A stretch of DNA of 10,582 nt. It comes from Tolypothrix carrinoi HA7290-LM1. GTDB taxonomy: Bacteria; Cyanobacteriota; Cyanobacteriia; Cyanobacteriales; Nostocaceae. The stretch lies in assembly GCA_019358935.1 (NCBI GenBank), contig JAHHIK010000178.1, positions 1 through 10,582 of the forward strand. The letters are read 5' to 3'. A program made the position numbers and the translations under genes. The notes under the pieces were generated by a model. That model saw only the letters and a list, made by a program, of their open reading frames with translations. It made no database searches and was not told the origin of the DNA. Shown here one piece after another: positions 990 through 8,973 of this stretch; positions within the stretch are counted from its first letter, which is position 1; each line of letters begins with the position of its first letter.

Positions 990-1155
990 TGTAGCAACCT
1001 GCAATACTAATCGCTCAAACCTGCACTTCCCGGGTTTTTCAAACCAGGATTATTTGCAACTATAATTACACTTCAACCAGGATTAATTGCAACGTTCCCC
1101 TTGATTAAATGCAACCAACCTGCAATCATCCGTTTGAACCAGGATTATTTGCAAC
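990..1155 (+). repeat. Left terminal inverted repeat, 166 bp
   Basis: Reverse complement of 4002-4167 with one mismatch (IR position 7). Contains AACCAGGATTA(T/A)TTGCAAC-type units at 1042, 1075, 1097 (degenerate) and 1137. Confidence 0.95.
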
Positions 1156-1170
1156 GCTCCCGAAAGTCCC

Positions 1171-1400
1171 GTAAAACATGAGTTTGGCAGTTTACTTAAA
1201 AAACGGCTTCAACTTTACAAAAATATATTTGAATTCCAACGCCTGATTAATTGCAACTATAAGGTAAAAAAACGACCGTTTTTTTTACTGCTATTACCAG
1301 CATCAATCAGAACCAGAAATTAAATCAAGTTTAGTAACGAAACTCGGTAATTATATCAAAGGCAACATATTCTGTTAGGTAACGAGTTACTTTACTTGTT
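1171..1400. promoter_or_regulatory. Candidate res site / resolvase promoter region
   Basis: AT-rich stretch directly upstream of the resolvase with imperfect palindromes: GTAAAA...TTTTAC at 1171-1196, GTAAAAAAACG-AC-CGTTTTTTTTAC at 1264-1288, GTAACGAGTTAC at 1379-1390. Confidence 0.45.
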
Positions 1401-1411
1401 GGGGTTCAAGT

Positions 1412-1969
1412 ATGTTGATCGGCTATGCGCGAGTTTCAACTTCAGACCAAAATTTGGATCTGCAAATGGATGCTTTGCGGCAAGCTGGTTGTGATAGAAT
1501 TTATACAGACCATATCAGCAGTGCAAAAGCCGCAAGACCTGGACTTTTATTAGCGTTTGAGGTAGCGCGTACTGGTGATGTCTTGGTGGTATGGCGGCTC
1601 GACCGCTTGGGAAGGTCGCTTAAAGACCTGATTGAAACGATGGAAACCCTAGATAAGCGAGGAATTGGGCTTTCTAGTTTGCAAGAATCCATCACCACCA
1701 CGAATAATAGTGGCAGGTTGATTTTCCATTTATTTGGCGCATTAGCAGAATTTGAACGCAACCTAATCTCGGAACGCACAACTGCTGGACTTGTAGCAGC
1801 GCGATCGCGCGGTCACAGGGGAGGAAGACCAAAAGCCCTTGACCCAGCTAAACGCCAATTAGCAGTAAAGCTTTATACCGAAGGACAACATACCATTATT
1901 GAAATATGTAAGTTAATGGGAATTTCCAAACCAACGCTCTACAACTACATTGCAGAGATAAACACCTAA
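1412..1969 (+). CDS. Serine recombinase (resolvase/invertase family), intact
   Basis: MLIGYARVST catalytic Ser motif, LVVWRLDRLGRSL, AEFERNLISERT, GGRP and a C-terminal HTH; 185 aa. Confidence 0.95.
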   Translation: MLIGYARVSTSDQNLDLQMDALRQAGCDRIYTDHISSAKAARPGLLLAFEVARTGDVLVVWRLDRLGRSLKDLIETMETLDKRGIGLSSLQESITTTNNSGRLIFHLFGALAEFERNLISERTTAGLVAARSRGHRGGRPKALDPAKRQLAVKLYTEGQHTIIEICKLMGISKPTLYNYIAEINT

Positions 1970-1970
1970 C

Positions 1971-3635
1971 ATGGCACATAAGCAAATCCCGACAGAGGCG
2001 CTCATTAATTTACGCCACCGCCTCAATGGGTTGCCGAGTCGTTGCCAGGAGCGTCGAATTCTCATTGAAGAAACAGCAGCATTGTATGGAGTGTCAACGG
2101 ATACTTTGTATCGGGCTTTGCGTAACTCATCACGTCTAAAATCTATAAACCGCTCAGATAGCGGGACAAGAGTGAAAACTTTCACTCTCTGAAATGGAAC
2201 GTTACTGCGAGGTCATCGCGGCGATGAAAATCCGTACCAGTAACAAAAAAGGGCGACATGTCTCTACAGTGCGGGCGATTGAACTGTTGGAAGAATTTGG
2301 AATGGAGACACCCAATGGTTTTGTCCAACCGCCCAAAGGCGCGTTAACTAGAAGCACTGTCAATTATTACTTGAAAACTTGGGGGTATGACACTGAACGT
2401 ATGACCAGGCAACCGCCTGCGGTGCGTTTTCAAGCAGAGTACAGTAACTCTTGTTGGCATTTCGACCTTAGTCCATCCGATCTCAAACACGTAAAACAGC
2501 CATCATGGGTGGAACCGGGTTTGGGGAATCCGTTGCTGATGCTGTACAGCATTGTTGATGACCGTAGTGGCGTATGTTATCAAGAATACCACTGTGTCTA
2601 TGGGGAGGATGTCGAAGCTGCATAATTCTTCTTATTTAATGCGATGACGGTGAAAACAACCGATGGATTTCCCTTTCATGGGATTCCAGAGATGATTTAC
2701 ACTGACAACGGACCAATTGCTAAAAGCCACGTATTTCAAAACGTGATGGATTGCCTGAGAATCAATCTTGTCACCCACATGCCCGCTCTTAAAGATGGTC
2801 GCAGGGTCACAGCCCGCTCTAAGGGCAAAGTTGAAAGACCGTTCCGGACGGTCAAAGAAGCCCACGAGACTCTGTATCACTTTCACGAACCGGAAAGCGA
2901 CGTTGAAGCGTGCTTTGTGGTTACGCCAATATTTATTGCATTACAACGACAAACCACACCGCATAGAACCGCATTCGCGGATAGAAGATTGGTTGCGAAA
3001 TATACCAAAATCTGGCTTACGGTCGATGTGCAGTTGGGAGCGATTCTGTACCTATGCCCGCGAGCCACAACGGAGGAAAGTGGGAACGGATGCTAGGGTA
3101 TCAGTAGAAGGTGTAGCTTATGAGGTAGAACCTGACCTGGCAGGGGAAACTGTCGTGCTGTGGTGGGGTCTTTTTGACAACGAACTGTACGTAGAGAAAG
3201 ATGACCAACGCTACGGACCATTTTACCCAGTTGATGGTCCCATCCCCCTACACCGCTACCGTAAATTCAAGAAAACCAAAACTGAAGAACGGGCAGATAA
3301 AATTGCTGATTTAGCTAAAAAGTTGGGCTTGCCACGGACAGCCTTAGACAAAAACGCGGATCTACAATTTCTGGTGGATAAGTACAAGGAACTTACGCCA
3401 ACCGTCACACCTTTTAACGACCCCGACCCATACCAAGAATTTACTTATCCCACTATATTGTTTGCTAAGAGGGCGATTTCCGAACAACTGGCCAAACCGT
3501 TGGCTAAATTGTCTACCGAACAGTTGGCATTCATTGATGCACTGTTAGCTGAGACTTTGAATAAAAAAGTCATTATTGAACGAGTGCGGCAATATTTCCA
3601 CTCAAACTCATGTGGGGAACAAAATGCTCACGCTC
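1971..3635 (+). pseudogene. DDE integrase-type (rve / Mu-like, often labelled IS481-family) transposase, disrupted
   Basis: HTH N-terminus, WHFDLSPSD, IYTDNGP, KGKVERPFRT. Lesions: frameshift at about 2170, in-frame TAA at 2623-2625, frameshift at about 2910, and apparent loss of the native stop at about 3633. Confidence 0.9.
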
Positions 3636-3964
3636 TGTCATGGAACACTTTCGTTTGCTTCGGGAGTTCCCCAAGGCTGGGTACTACGAGACAGAACACC
3701 AAAAACAAATGTTTAAGGATATTAAAGCCGCAATCCATTTTGGGGAAAAACTTGTTACCACGGCGATTATTGAGTCCGTTTTATCGCGCGCAAATTGACG
3801 ACTTAGAACCCACTTTAACCCGCCACGGTTATGACGTGAGGGGCTTGGCGGAACAGTTTAATGCCAAACCAGCTGAAATTAAATTACTCTTTCGCGGGCA
3901 ACTTGACCCAGCGCGTTCGCGTGAATTACACGAACAAATGCTGGCCGCGGGACTGCCGCTTTGA
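3624..3964 (+). pseudogene. ExeA/TniB-like AAA ATPase, internally deleted and frameshifted
   Basis: ATG at 3624 after GGGGA. N-terminal VMEHFRLLREFPKAGYYETEHQKQMFKDIKAAIH joins directly to C-terminal FGEKLVTTAIIESVLSR / QIDDLEPTLTRHGY...MLAAGLPL*. No Walker A or B motif remains. Confidence 0.75.
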
Positions 3965-4001
3965 GCAAATTGAAAACGCAATAAAAATCCAAGTATTTAT
4001 A

Positions 4002-4167
4002 GTTGCAAATAATCCTGGTTCAAACGGATGATTGCAGGTTGGTTGCATTTAATCAAGGGGAACGTTGCAATTAATCCTGGTTGAAGTGTAATTATAGTTG
4101 CAAATAATCCTGGTTTGAAAAACCCGGGAAGTGCAGGTTTGAGCGATTAGTATTGCAGGTCGCTACA
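4002..4167 (-). repeat. Right terminal inverted repeat, 166 bp
   Basis: 165 of 166 bases identical to 990-1155 in inverted orientation. Confidence 0.95.
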
Positions 4168-4342
4168 GGTAACTCTCTAATTTATCCTGTTTTGTTTGAG
4201 AGTTCCTTTTAGGAGCAGCTATTGATGCGTCTAACAGTGTCGTTTTCTTTGCGACTCTGGGAAATTCTAGTCCCAACCAAGCAGCCTGGCGTTTTACGGT
4301 GCCGCGATCAACCTGTAGTCTTTGCGCTATCTTTTGGACACT
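4168..4342 (-). pseudogene. tnsD: Internal fragment of a Tn7 TnsD/TniQ-family target selector
   Basis: SVQKIAQRLQVDRGTVKRQAAWLGLEFPR resembles the HTH segment of TnsD C-terminal regions. Same strand as, and downstream of, the tnsB remnant. Confidence 0.6.
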
Positions 4343-4913
4343 GCGGGTTTCGTCTTGGCACATATACCTAAGCCGCTTGCCTGACCCAAATTCCGGAATG
4401 TAAAAATTTGAGCGAAGCGCGGGAGTTTTTTTAAAGTGAGATAAGCTCTCTGGATGCTGTTTCCGACTTTTGGGACGAGGAACTTTGAGTTTGGCTCCTT
4501 TGAGAATAGCGAGGTGCGTTGATAAACTGTTTTATAGGCAATGTTGAGTCGCAGTTCATTTTTGAGCCATTGTTGAATCTGGTTATAGCTATTGAAACCT
4601 TGTGGTTCCTCCAATTTTTGCTTCAAGCGTTCTAAGCTCTCTCCACTGACTATAGGTTCTTTTCCTGGCGCCTGCTTCACCTCTAGTAACCCGCTCCGTC
4701 CACCGTCTTTATATTTCCAAGAACCTTCGAGTTATGGTTGCCTCCGGAGCGCCCTAAACGTTCTGCGATCGCGCGACGACTCGTTACCTGACCTGTTTTT
4801 AGCCAGTAGAGCATTTGTAATCGCTCCTTGCTACTCGTCTGGCAAGTGTATTTAACGGCTTTTTCTAATTCTTCTTGACTTTCTTTTATTTCGACTTGTA
4901 ATTTTAAACCCAT
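4343..4913 (-). pseudogene. IS630 transposase N-terminal part (HTH domains), frameshifted
   Basis: MGLKLQVEIKESQEELEK...KERLQMLYWLK; APGKEP...PQGFNSYNQIQQWL; A7 slippery site at 4426-4432; RYMCQDETR. Confidence 0.85.
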
Positions 4914-4973
4914 CGCGCTTAAACCAAATGCACCCTTATTTCTAATTTAGCGCAGCTTCATACAGAAATGGTA
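4343..4973 (-). mobile_element. IS630-family element #1, truncated (5' half only)
   Basis: Terminal sequence TACCATTTCTGTATGAAGCTGCG (minus strand) starts at 4973, with TAA flank at 4974-4976. The transposase breaks off after the first catalytic motif YMCQDETR. Confidence 0.85.
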
Positions 4974-4991
4974 TAAGGTTCTAATACCATT

Positions 4992-5872
4992 TCACGAAAA
5001 CCCTGATACAATTAAAGCGTCTAAAATAAAATCCCATCCGGCAAGAGATTTGATTTGAGAAGACGTAAATTTATCTAGCCTTTTCCATACAGCTTCTCTT
5101 AATTCATTCAAATCTTGGAAACATTCCCAACTTAAATGTTTCTTAATTTCTTCCCAAAATCTTTCAATTGGATTAACATAAGAGTGTATGCGGTGGTTGA
5201 AACAATAAAATTATGTTCTCTGGTACTTCCAGATATTGAGAGAAGTGAAATGCACCATTATCAACTTGAATGATATGTAAATCCTCAGGATGCTCTTCTA
5301 CAAACTTTTCTAAAAATATCGATGGCGCAAATCGTGTCTAAATGTGAAAATTCAAGTATGAAGTGTTCTCCCGTAGTCGGTTCAACTACGCCGTACAGAT
5401 AGAAATTATCCCGTTTCCACGATTTTAATCCAACTGGCTTTACTCCTGTTAATGTAATTACCTTTCCTGGTATAGTTTGAAGACCAAACCGACTTTCATC
5501 CCCACACCAATAACGAACTTTCCGATGTTTTTATCCTGGTGATATCAAATATTTATCAATCAACTTTAACCATGAAGGAAGTTTTTTTTAAACTCTTCTT
5601 CCATGCCTTTGTTCTGCTTGACACTACGCGGACGAGGTGCTTTTAATTTCGCCTTGAGCTTGTAACGAACCGTGTCATGCACGACTTTATATGACGCTTC
5701 GATACCAACGGAAGCCTTCAACCAGGTACGGATTTCCTCATAACTTTTAAATCCTTCGGGGTCTTTTAGTTCAAGATTGAAGTTGCGATCCGCCGCAAGG
5801 CGGCAGCGCTTCCGCTCTTCGGACGAGGGGCGCGAACGCTATCGCACTAATTGTGGGATGGTTGTTGGTCGT
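4992..5872 (-). pseudogene. IS630 #2 transposase, 3' portion (DDE domain), frameshifted
   Basis: RPTTIP...DPEGFKSYEEIRTWL...KLKAPRPRS; A8 slippery site at 5582-5589; YWCGDESRFG, QVDNGAFH, NPIERFWEEIK; stop at 4992-4994 lies inside the IR. Confidence 0.85.
5788..5840. repeat. 53-bp GC-rich hairpin insertion splitting a HIP1 site (SDR5-like small dispersed repeat)
   Basis: GCG (5785-5787) and ATCGC (5841-5845) rejoin to GCGATCGC. The insert contains CCGCC-GCAA-GGCGG and a C-TTCG-G loop. Confidence 0.65.
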
Positions 5873-6020
5873 GCAACTTTTAAGCTAATCAAAGCGATTA
5901 AGCTTGACTAACTATGACATCCGTCAATTCCGATGAGCGAGGAAAGCACGATAGAATCATGCGTCACGGTAAAGGCAGTTGCGCGGCATCGCACGTAACA
6001 TGATGTTGCGTGCGCCATTT
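5873..6020 (-). ncRNA. Predicted omegaRNA/reRNA scaffold of the IS607 TnpB (5' boundary uncertain)
   Basis: Lies over the tnpB 3' end and the element right end. Hairpins AAGCTAATC-AAAGC-GATTAAGCTT (5882-5905) and TGAC-ATCC-GTCA (5915-5926). Inferred from TnpB biology. Confidence 0.5.
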
Positions 6021-7234
6021 ACATCACGAGAAATTTTAATTCCGCAATGTGGGCATTTAAAGATTTTAGAGCCACCAAGCTTTTGATGAATATGACCGCA
6101 GTTGCCACAAGTTTTGGAGGTGTAAGATTCGTTGCAAAGAACAACTATTACACCTTTTTTTAATGCCGCTTGTGTGAGGTGCTGCTCAAACCGATAATGA
6201 GAAAGAGTTAGCATTTGACGTACAGATTTATTGTTAATCCTACGTTTCTTGTTTTTCTTGGTTTTGACTACCATTTGACTAGTATCAAAAGTTGGTAAAA
6301 AGATTACTTTGTAGGAATTAACTAGCAAGTTGACTGCTTTGTTGTGTAGCTCTTTAATCAAATTTTGAATTCTTTCTCTTACACGATTAGCGGCAATACG
6401 CATCTTTCGACGCTGACGACTTTTGACTTTGGTGGATTGACTTATTAGCTTGTCAAGGTGCTGACACAATCTTTGTATGCGTCCGATATCTCCCTTACCA
6501 ATCTCTAAGACATTCTCACCATCAAACCCAGTCAAAAAAGTGCGATTACCTGGGTCAAGTGCAATTACTCTATCACTACCAGTTGGAGTTATTTCTTGAT
6601 GTTGTGGAAAACAACCAAACCATTTACCACGACGATATACAAGTTCTGTTCCATACTCACAGTGTTCGGGTACAGTTTGACCAAAAGTAGTAAACTTCAA
6701 ACCCTTTGTTGTACTGCAATACCATGTACCATTTTTCTAATTCCCAACTTGAAACTGTATAGTTTGAGCAGTAGCTTTTGCGGTTTTGAACTTAGCGAAA
6801 CCACCATCTTTTTTAGCACGATTAAATGCATCATATGCTTCAAAACAGGCTTCTTGTCGTTGATGACCAGGTATTGATGTTACCCAGTCAGGGGTATTTT
6901 CTAATCGTTGTAAGTATTTATCCAAGGTTTCTGCGTTTAGTTTTTCAACACCGTCATAGCAACGAAGTAAGCTAATAGTTTCGTTGTAATAGTAACGATA
7001 TTGAGCAAGCCACCTTTTCCAGACTGCATACAACTCCTTACTAGGATATAGCCTGATTTTGAGTACACTGTTCGGTTGAGGCTTTGTCGATTTCGAGTGT
7101 CTCGCCTTCTTTTTGTAAGTCTTCTTTAAACTTTGATTTGTACTTTCTAAGCCCGTATAACCTACTAGAGAATTGTTGTACGATGGACAGCATATCTTGA
7201 ATGAGTTCGGCTTCTGGACTAAGTTTGCGGTCAT
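5957..7234 (-). pseudogene. tnpB: TnpB RNA-guided endonuclease (pro-Fanzor/Fanzor2-like), split by one in-frame TAG; start uncertain
   Basis: LKIRLYP wedge start at about 7060; TAG at 6737-6739 followed in frame by KNGTWYCSTTKGLKF; IALDPGNRTF; IFLPTF; NESYTSKTCGNC...CPHC; RDVNGARNI. The frame is open upstream to 7675. Confidence 0.9.
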
Positions 7235-7682
7235 TGAGAACCACGAGTTCGCACTCAAATTTTTCGCACAACCACTTAACCAATTCATATCCGAATCTAA
7301 CGAGTCGGTCAGGATGGGCAACGACAAGGCGTTTGATATCACCGTCGATGATTCGCTCCAAAATAGAGATGAATTTTTTCCTCCTAAAATTGAGTCCGCT
7401 TCCAGTTTCTGAAATGACTTCACCCTCTGGGTATCGTTCACGTAAAAACGCAAGTTGTCTTTGCAAATCGTCTTGCTGGGAATGAGTCGAAACCCTCCCA
7501 TAGCAAACAGTTCTAATTGCCCTGGCGATACCTGCGGTTTTCTCGACCTCTTCGAGGATAAACCTTCTCTGCCCTCCTGGTGTTCTAATTGCTTTGAGTT
7601 TGCCTTCGTTTTCCCATCTTCTAAGTGAGGAAACGTGGACACCAAGGATTTTAGCGGCTTCCTTGGGGGTGACATGTTGCAT
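7041..7682 (-). CDS. tnpA: IS607 serine recombinase/transposase TnpA, intact
   Basis: N-terminal MerR-like HTH (TPKEAAKILGVHVSSLRRWENEG...RTPGGQRRF), YGRVST, GSGLNFRRK, HPDRLVRFG, FSSRLYGLR. Confidence 0.95.
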   Translation of the reverse strand: MQHVTPKEAAKILGVHVSSLRRWENEGKLKAIRTPGGQRRFILEEVEKTAGIARAIRTVCYGRVSTHSQQDDLQRQLAFLRERYPEGEVISETGSGLNFRRKKFISILERIIDGDIKRLVVAHPDRLVRFGYELVKWLCEKFECELVVLNDRKLSPEAELIQDMLSIVQQFSSRLYGLRKYKSKFKEDLQKEGETLEIDKASTEQCTQNQAIS

Positions 7683-7689
7683 CAATACC

Positions 7690-7750
7690 TACTTAACTCA
7701 ACTATAAATAGTCTAACAAGAGTTAAGTAAGTTTGAGCGATTTAAGCAAA
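7690..7750. promoter_or_regulatory. IS607 left-end TnpA-binding/promoter region
   Basis: Inverted pair TACTTAACTC (7690-7699) and GAGTTAAGTA (7720-7729). TT(A/G)AG motifs about 10 bp apart at 7723, 7733 and 7742 also occur at the right end (5880, 5898). Confidence 0.5.
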
Positions 7751-7768
7751 AATATTTTGATTATTCAC

Positions 7769-8021
7769 TCGTCCTGGACTCTTATTAAGTTCAAGCAGAC
7801 TGCTTAATCCACCTTCTCTATAGAGCTTTAGCCACCTCTGCACCGTTATCCTTCCTCTCCCCAACACTACTGCCAGGTGTTGCACCGTTTGGACTTGCCG
7901 CGTTTTTAATAAATACAGCGCTTGAACACGCTATGAACCCAAACCCAGTTTTTTGTTGTTTCAACAATTCCTGAAGTTCAGACGCTGGTTCTTTTATTTC
8001 TAGCTTGAGAACCCTACACAT
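7769..8021 (-). pseudogene. IS630 #2 transposase, 5' portion, frameshifted
   Basis: MCRVLKLEIKEPASELQELLKQQKTG, then in a shifted frame RVQALYLLKTRQVQTVQHLAVVLGRGRITVQRWLKLYREGGLSSLLELNKSPGR. Confidence 0.85.
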
Positions 8022-8083
8022 TTTTGTTTTTTATGAGTGACGCCCCCTGAAACTATATGTATCATATTTTTAGTGAAATGGTA

Positions 8084-8750
8084 TAACTCATCTTGAATCA
8101 TGAATTGCTCTAGTGGGTATTTATCTAAACGCCTTTCATTGTTATGGTTAAGGATACAGAGAATCATTAAGGAGCGAAATTCATGTAAAGTTAAAACTCC
8201 ATCCAGCCTTTTATCCCTTTCACCTCGTGAGGGAAGGTTTTTTACAGCTCCTGGCAACCAGTGAATTCTTTAATTATTCAACTCGTTAAAACTCTGTTCA
8301 ACAATGCCTTTCATGTCGGCTCGATAAGGCGGTGTATTATCAACCTTGATATTGAGAGATTCCACCAAATTATTTGCATTGTATCCCTCAAATTCTCCTC
8401 TATCTGCCAGCACGGCGTGCGGGAGGTGATGGCTTGGCCATTCCGCTTCTGTAATTTCAATGCCAAATCCCCTGCAACAACCCTTCGCCTTATGGGGACA
8501 GCCAACATCTGTAAAATGTCGCTCTTGTATCGAGGATCTAGTAAACAAGGCTGTCCCCATAAGTCTTGGTCAGGTGTCGCCCTGGCAAAAAAAGACTTTG
8601 TCTGCTGTGGCGTTTTCTAAGGCTAACATTGCTCCCAACCATGAGGGAGGTTCGAGGGTGACAATAAACCCAACTATTAATCGGCTAAATACATCAATAA
8701 CTAAATAGAGTGTCGGTCTACCAATAATCCAACTTCGGTTAATGGCACTT
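8084..8750 (-). pseudogene. tnsB: Tn7 TnsB-family transposase, internal fragment
   Basis: IIGRPTLYLVIDVFSRLIVGF...EPPSWLGAMLALENA; EWPSHHLPHAVLADRGEF; NTPPYRADMKGIVEQSF; LDGVLTLHEF. All in one frame, with an in-frame TAA at 8270-8272 and a 111-bp insert. Confidence 0.9.
8471..8581. mobile_element. About 111-bp miniature inverted-repeat insertion in tnsB
   Basis: Perfect 15-bp IR CTTATGGGGACAGCC (8489-8503) / GGCTGTCCCCATAAG (8549-8563). Removing it restores FCQ-GFGIEITE. Confidence 0.75.
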
Positions 8751-8973
8751 GTGCCAGTACTTAAAAACTTTTGGAAGCTGGCTGCAACGAGACTTATATT
8801 ACCTTTGAAAATTCTCAAAAAAGGAGGGCGTAATTGGAGCGAGGGTCACTCTCTGCTGCAAGAGCTATTGCAGCAGGGGCAACAAAACGGATGGTAATAA
8901 GAGCGCGATCGTACTTTCTGTGGGGGGGGTGCGATCGCCTTGACAATTCAGACAGACGTATTTTATCACCACT

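Follow-up and report, generated by a model that had tools for sequence, protein, structure and literature searches.

What does the nuclease gene of a broken cyanobacterial insertion sequence encode, and where does its reading frame begin? We addressed this question in a window of 10,582 nucleotides, the whole stretch of DNA analysed here, on whose minus strand a preliminary description had placed an IS607 TnpB with a Fanzor-type rearranged RuvC site, starting at position 7234. In the reading that we consider probable, the window carries a broken cyanobacterial IS607 pro-Fanzor whose nuclease frame opens 7 nt past the start of tnpA and runs stop-free through tnpA in the +1 frame. Intact copies would then likely make a 590-aa nuclease with its first 210 residues read from tnpA DNA. 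This reading includes the N-terminal arm, the clamp and the donor-site-cutting mechanism described below.

The element, its ends and its host

The IS607 element occupies positions 5871 to 7772 of the minus strand (1,902 bp, from left AC to right AC), where the alignment with its siblings C43 and C73 from the same genome stops; these ends are common to relatives. The left junction RG|AC (7771 to 7774, minus strand) is found by eye in 20 of the 21 copies displayed. The right ends close with GTTGCAC followed by a variable base (21 flanks), and AC is present at both junctions of the copies compared. The element splits a degenerate host transposon (4984 to 8084, minus strand, HTH_29) bounded by 27-nt inverted ends at 4984 to 5010 and 8058 to 8084, which we take from its motifs to be of IS630 type. 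No empty allele of this host was found in the own genome; removing the IS607 and one AC from the host frame restores its register, reading S-P-G-R-P by eye. Because of the RG|AC and GCAC ends and the host frame falling back into register, the crossover core is likely AC rather than GG, and RGAC is the predicted TAM. The RG|AC family thus differs from the GG crossover dinucleotide that the available text of PMC10711439 gives for IS607 and draws for ISXfa1.

The tnpA gene (7041 to 7682, minus strand) is intact and encodes an IS607 serine transposase of 213 aa from ATG 7682, with TTG 7685 as a possible start. It matches NF033518 with 193.5 bits against a cut-off of 110, and its product combines a MerR-type HTH with a resolvase (serine recombinase) domain.

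We predict a right-end RNA scaffold at 5871 to 6060 of the minus strand, ending in GTTGCAC, from which the guide would begin at 5870. The right end folds better than its shuffles (z = -2.8), and the consensus stems are shared by 16 copies, for the most part as invariant pairs, with two-sided change in 10 of 48 pairs; the sequence past the right end is variable. An Rfam search (E up to 1) returned two weak matches, both far under their cut-offs and neither inside the element, and the promoter and terminator scan returned numbers at chance level. In one related copy (L006) a 21-nt insertion lies within a loop of the predicted right-end RNA.

The nuclease gene has the residues of a pro-Fanzor

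Judged from its sequence, the nuclease gene is a pro-Fanzor with DPG and a shifted Glu, an already described and common class. The RuvC-I DPG lies at 6548 to 6556 (minus strand, as are all residues that follow) with the Asp GAC at 6554 to 6556. A Pro (CCA, 6293 to 6295) occupies the canonical RuvC-II site, and the alternative catalytic Glu (GAA, 6128 to 6130) follows 55 residues past this Pro and six before the first CxxC. A CxxC-x14-CxxC zinc finger (6044 to 6109, PF07282) and the RuvC-III Asp (GAT, 6023 to 6025) complete the site. All of these residues had been reported at the same coordinates, and we likewise confirm that the two listed open reading frames share one frame with a TAG at 6737 to 6739 between them. 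Translated through this TAG as X, the protein fits the published pro-Fanzor pattern DPG-x(120-160)-E-x6-CxxC-x(12-18)-CxxC-x(4-8)-D given in the methods of PMC10711439, with spacings of 139, 14 and 6.

The likeness extends to the pattern of that work as far as its available text goes, with an IS607 tnpA upstream and cyanobacterial host relatives: in the window the gene is prokaryotic, the IS607 TnpA is adjacent, the Glu stands in its shifted place with the canonical Glu absent, and the relatives are cyanobacterial. The bacterial genome and these relatives set it apart from Fanzor2, which has a eukaryotic or giant-virus host, while a canonical IS200/IS605 TnpB would carry a RuvC-II Glu and a Y1 transposase where this element has a Pro and a serine TnpA. 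In the available texts of PMC10530073 and PMC10691335, the rearranged TnpB2 and RIIr proteins share the Pro or Gly at RuvC-II and the compensating Glu; they form a broader group than the DPG pro-Fanzors of the window.

The best PDB match of the nuclease is the mimivirus Fanzor2 9b0l. A FastTree of the RuvC core groups the nuclease with Fanzor2-type proteins and sets 59 DPG rows apart from 15 non-DPG rows with a support of 99; the tree is midpoint-rooted, comprises neither Fanzor1 rows nor a named IS605 reference, and gives no order of events. Together with the NF033518 score, these results bear out the IS607 pro-Fanzor identity proposed earlier. The pattern fits 118 of 120 homologues among the matches listed, and 3,552 sequences were recovered by the two patterns of PMC10711439 combined, according to its available text.

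Two lesions in the window copy and intact siblings

The premature TAG (6737 to 6739, minus strand) is codon 313 of the long frame described below. At this site 11 of 30 relatives' contexts have Tyr and 18 of 30 have Phe, and the nearest relatives have TAT or TAC. The TAG would most simply derive from TAY; the earlier derivation from TAT or TAC agrees with the nearest relatives, but Phe codons are also common at the site. A sequencing error is not supported: a 1,240-bp contig of run X1 covers the TAG at a depth of 506 with no alternative letter, a check that is not independent in that X1 is perhaps the window's own source. The insertion site lies outside the pieces listed, and the small-share sequencing runs cover short pieces of the stretch only.

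The second lesion is one extra base near 5986 (5983 to 5992, minus strand), present relative to all 15 aligned relatives, by which the LQATAF tail is replaced. A small frameshift at about 5985 altering only the tail had been suspected; the frameshift is real, but the tail is conserved and not dispensable. Of 79 homologues with a script-readable tail, 62 have the lost LQATA; in an alignment of 19 homologues, L371 and F376 do not vary. With two lesions the copy is not one codon from an open frame, as had been thought. Long decay can be rejected: the window copy departs from 3 of 128 conserved columns compared with a median of 4 among 70 members. On these sequence grounds, the window tnpB belongs to a known class and is a pseudogene of recent origin.

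Intact copies do exist in the same genome. Siblings C43 and C73 are 80-82% identical in nucleotides and have an open tnpB, and a distant sibling (C80, 35% protein identity) is open as well; across genomes, some match was found in 21 of the 61 searched, own genome included. Two lesions and open siblings in the same genome make repair of the window copy pointless, and the reconstruction of a nuclease that had been suggested adds nothing to what C43 and C73 offer. With tnpA and both ends intact, the window copy would still transpose, and it would yield only a 312-aa nuclease fragment without RuvC. Because the last 21 nt are identical across the three ends, the siblings might serve the window copy's RNA in trans.

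The nuclease frame runs through tnpA

The nuclease frame is longer than its earlier placement. It covers 5957 to 7675 of the minus strand (572 codons, +1 to tnpA, broken by the TAG at codon 313); opening with ATG 7675, 7 nt past the tnpA ATG, it spans all of tnpA. The frames of C43 and C73 are likewise open, for 593 aa and 590 aa, and the remaining four frames over the window's tnpA contain 19, 7, 6 and 23 stops. The start at 7234 is too late, with the frame open from ATG 7675 and conserved motifs upstream of 7234. The "compact" nuclease envisaged from that start would lose the FW, LxLP, SWF and clamp motifs, all upstream in frame.

Loci were gathered in two ways, via the TnpB core and via the tnpA family alone, as a guard against the bias of a long query; at 90% identity, 67 of the 110 tnpA rows were kept. 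None of the 39 DPG representatives has a +1 stop after codon 30, a cut chosen after the data because a few lineages show stops between codons 14 and 28; the elements are kin. Synonymous recoding of these representatives gave a mean of 9.9 stops with no null run at zero; their TnpA identity is at least 32%, with a median of 50%. Four rows typed as other TnpB have 13-24 +1 stops, and the 24 untyped rows divide into 7 without +1 stops, one with 3 and 16 with 9-22. Among the 40 loci picked by tnpA alone, all six DPG loci are free of +1 stops and 31 of the 34 others have 9-24; the remaining three (0, 0 and 3 stops) carry the SW motif. Four IS607 loci (L134, L137, L152, L157) that by pattern have the shifted Glu as DLG or DIG show 15-17 +1 stops and no overlap; thus the overlap follows DPG and not the shifted Glu alone. 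Five plasmid loci comprise three with ordinary short or no overlap and two without a scorable tnpB.

The open-frame overlap amounts to 450-760 nt in the DPG clade compared with 0-34 nt in the ordinary IS607 loci compared here. The available text of PMC3673617 describes the canonical IS607 with the same order, a serine recombinase tnpA and then tnpB, as two overlapping ORFs. In 36 of 37 scorable elements an ATG follows the tnpA start by no more than 100 nt, 9 of 46 elements having been left out of this count for want of a clear tnpA ATG; offsets differ by sub-lineage. Such a head-of-frame ATG can be a by-product of His/Tyr-Val codons in tnpA.

We compared synonymous divergence in the two genes. 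Over 13 disjoint pairs, 25% of fourfold sites have diverged in tnpA (211/831) versus 47% in the tnpB core (664/1,398); the control pairs, only three in number, gave 59% (83/140) versus 60% (114/191). Within tnpA the divergence falls from 38% in codons 1-55 (97/254) to 25% in codons 56-110 (61/248), then 18% and 13%. The comparison omits pairs below 60% TnpA or 50% TnpB identity, short loci and L161. Such synonymous constraint, strongest in the second half, is what selection on the protein of the second frame would be expected to leave. To our knowledge, fully nested and selected gene pairs of about 200 codons are rare outside viruses.

Given that IS607 tnpA is widespread without the second frame, tnpA is likely the older gene of the pair. 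A quick TnpA tree came with long-branch warnings and did not resolve the DPG-linked TnpAs as one clade; it gives no order of events. In gene predictions the start of these TnpBs is often set about 200 residues too far downstream (369-408 aa, for example P0006 and P0010), with the overlapped domain omitted.

The overlapped region resembles the N-terminal domain of Fanzor2

What would the tnpA-derived residues form? Residues 1-64 or so make up an N-terminal arm (7484 to 7675, minus strand) that is predicted to be disordered and is overprinted on the TnpA HTH; in a model of the C43 protein, pLDDT is below 50 over these residues. Confidence is moderate over residues 65-175, and pLDDT mostly 50-80 in the N-terminal domain. 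Motifs FW, LxLP and SWF of the Fanzor2-type N-terminal domain lie in register over the TnpA catalytic domain (7235 to 7363, minus strand). Further on, a basic stretch (7097 to 7126, minus strand) would, by its position and charge, take the place of the Fanzor2 'thumb' as named in the available text of PMC11832414.

According to that text, the mimivirus Fanzor2 ApmFz2 (9B0L) has a disordered segment (1-53), an N-terminal domain (53-130) unseen in other TnpB structures, then WED, REC, RuvC and ZnF, with the same rearranged triad. The difference is that the counterpart of its N-terminal domain is here read from tnpA in +1. The profile built from 70 long forms matches ApmFz2 residues 78-509, SW motif included. 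Residues 102-570 of the C43 model align with 9b0l 53-518 (Z 22.1, rmsd 4.4, 416 aligned), whereas ISDra2 TnpB aligns with Z 21.1, rmsd 3.1 and 336 aligned, the top Z being only 1.0 higher. The alignments of ISDra2 and other TnpBs begin at model residues 201-203, and at least 46 of the residues aligned with 9b0l lie upstream of residue 201. A domain with RuvC-R and thumb before WED is found in the long frame only, at moderate model confidence. We infer from these models that residues ~100-200 form a Fanzor2-type N-terminal domain (RuvC-R and thumb).

A beta-clamp-type motif in the arm

The arm contains QLELF (residues 53-57; 7505 to 7519, minus strand), a beta-clamp-type motif. In the available text of PMC3971601, the beta-clamp consensus is Q-L-S-L-F/L, peptides of nine IS families bind, and cyanobacterial IS200/IS605 OrfB has a putative clamp motif at its C-terminus. 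Our motif shares Q-L-x-L-F/L in a flexible end; it differs by standing at the N-terminus of an IS607 pro-Fanzor, in the second frame of tnpA, rather than at the C-terminus of an IS605-type OrfB. Within the first 100 codons we found QLxL[FL] in 27 of the 46 open-frame elements versus 0 of 21 controls, and a looser pattern in 31 of 46 against 1.3 expected under stop-free recoding, counts to be read with the pattern having been chosen after the data were seen and the elements being kin. The TnpA residues beneath QLxLF vary widely, and three elements carry the motif about 25 codons earlier in another register, so TnpA does not force it. Its distribution is patchy. Among long proteins, 35 of 76 close homologues and 5 of 95 distant representatives have it; among viral loci, 1 of 79 does.

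When residues 40-70 were modelled in complex with the genome's own DnaN, the score was 0.64, and the best of three controls gave 0.00; of the solved pairs 116 of 157 reach the mark, and of the mismatched pairs 2 of 215. The docking runs share at least 86% of contacts with a partner pLDDT of at least 61, and the closest contacts are those of residues 52-57. On DnaN, these contacts fall on the alignment-invariant columns G185, R187, L188, P260, Y262, M382 and P383, which we take to be the ligand pocket. Since clamp-peptide complexes have been solved, the pass may come from likeness to them. We infer, with the models as the basis, a flexible arm (residues 1-64) whose QLxLF would bind the beta sliding clamp.

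The genome has three dnaN genes (C71, C173 and C9); the C173 copy itself contains QLSLF and adjoins a helicase-like ORF.

Nested loci in viruses

The nesting extends to viruses. A same-strand tnpA is present in 46 of 79 viral loci, of which 42 lack a +1 stop after codon 30; in a few, +1 stops occur later and several viral frames open later. The search was ranked with a long query and leans towards overlap. Among loci from giant-virus MAGs, 8 of the 9 with a same-strand tnpA lack a +1 stop after codon 30. The 29 giant-virus MAG loci comprise these 8 nested loci, 1 same-strand broken, 5 with tnpA on the opposite strand, 14 in which none was found and 1 without a scorable tnpB, so that nesting is kept in 8 of the 14 that have tnpA. 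It holds in AT-rich giant-virus loci of 23-34% GC.

In the giant-virus loci with an opposite-strand tnpA, the N-terminal profile scores only 1-17 bits, not above the +1 frames of ordinary tnpA (up to 22), although the motif order PFWN-FxP-WF is visible in several opposite-strand loci (L205, L216, L224, L225, L230, L231). No PCNA-type motif was found in 21 viral arms, and no clamp-type motif in giant-virus arms, which distinguishes the bacterial arm from that of giant-virus Fanzor2.

Alternative explanations

It is conceivable that the overlap is real and translation starts inside tnpA, at about codon 60-100, giving a Fanzor2-sized protein with the 5' frame and QLxLF unused. The weak synonymous constraint in codons 1-55, the predicted disorder of residues 1-64 and the later opening of several viral frames fit such a start, which we nevertheless judge unlikely: all 39 DPG representatives lack stops after codon 30, constraint is already strong in codons 56-110 (61/248), QLxLF is kept over changing TnpA residues, and an ATG follows closely behind the last stop in 36 of 37 elements. 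The same ATG at the head of the +1 frame argues against a programmed +1 frameshift from TnpA into the long frame that would produce an HTH-TnpB fusion. The frame downstream of any shift must be open, as it is, and four of 120 homologues (P0004, P0050, P0083, P0111) do start like a TnpA HTH and continue in the TnpB frame. These four, however, switch at different places, as deletions would, and a conserved slippery site was not seen by eye in the three own-genome copies, which makes such a fusion very improbable; a -1 frameshift is ruled out by tnpB lying in +1.

The long frame could also go untranslated, having arisen as a side effect of codon choice or because tnpA is constrained as DNA or RNA; the nuclease would then be an ordinary compact pro-Fanzor that begins near 7234 or at the annotated core. 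Many database entries are indeed short (369-408 aa), including NCBI's and two from the own genome, and a weak resemblance to the domain is already present in the +1 frames of ordinary tnpA. We give this very little credence, as +1 alone is stop-free where ordinary IS607 of the same phylum have 9-24 stops, nesting persists in giant-virus loci of 23-34% GC, and the overlapped part has its match in a domain that the Fanzor2 structure resolves. The arm leaves more room for doubt. QLxLF is patchy and short and its docking may reflect memory of solved complexes, so that a role with another partner or in folding deserves some weight. Its agreement with the published consensus at Q1, L2, L4 and F5 within a disordered arm, and the putative C-terminal motif reported for cyanobacterial IS200/IS605 OrfB in the available text of PMC3971601, make such a role rather unlikely.

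Proposed mechanism and origin

In intact copies, TnpA and nuclease would be translated from one mRNA with starts 7 nt apart. By analogy to other TnpBs, TnpA would excise the element and insert it at RG|AC; the nuclease with its right-end RNA would cut the empty donor site (predicted TAM RGAC), and repair would restore the element. Cutting of the empty donor site with restoration of the element is reported for other TnpBs (PMC10055086 and 10.1101/2023.11.20.567912). Clamp binding would put the nuclease behind the fork, with an intact sister copy close by.

We hypothesize that overprinting created the N-terminal domain of Fanzor2: read-through into +1 within an IS607 serine transposase gene would have given the pro-Fanzor/Fanzor2 ancestor a new domain and a free arm. 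The nested pair would have crossed intact between bacteria and giant viruses and later been unpicked in some viruses, and the cyanobacterial arm would have gained, more than once, a clamp-binding motif taking an RNA-guided nuclease to the replication fork. We regard this scenario as evenly balanced between being right and wrong. The overlap provides a concrete source for a domain that the Fanzor2 structure resolves, and it is a character able to order the transfer between bacteria and viruses that the available text of PMC10711439 leaves open. The clamp motif, if it works, ties an RNA-guided transposon nuclease to the replisome. Because the starts in many database entries lie about 200 residues too far downstream, work on pro-Fanzors as editing tools would begin from a truncated clone.

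Pro-Fanzors are already known; the new aspect is the N-terminal QLxLF clamp-type motif in a disordered arm. The main text of PMC10711439 makes no mention of overlap or N-terminal, and its supplement of none of overlap, reading frame, N-terminal or clamp, within the parts available. Neither the nesting nor an N-terminal clamp motif in the pro-Fanzor clade was found in the available texts of the literature searched, including PMC10711439 with supplement and preprint, PMC11832414, PMC10530073, PMC3971601, PMC13565253, PMC3673617 and PMC10691335; subscription papers, ISfinder and bioRxiv supplements were outside this scope and may bear on novelty.

Neighbouring mobile sequences

Within the host IS630-type frame lies a 67-bp repeat (5785-5851) with copies on C147, C67 and C12 and a high contig depth. 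A second degenerate IS630-type gene (4200-4960) adjoins the first and is cut off near a transposon end at 4167. That end belongs to a separate transposon (990-4167) with 166-nt inverted ends, 99% complementary, which have internal 28-29-nt repeats and TGT...ACA termini; it encodes a serine resolvase (1412-1969) and a frameshifted Mu-like transposase (weak PF22483) and is single-copy in the genome. On the other side, broken integrase-like transposase fragments (8000-8900), presumably of Mu/TnsB type from their motifs, give no Pfam match and are interrupted by the end of the host element. Several short segments between 8857 and 10461 recur on many other contigs of the genome.
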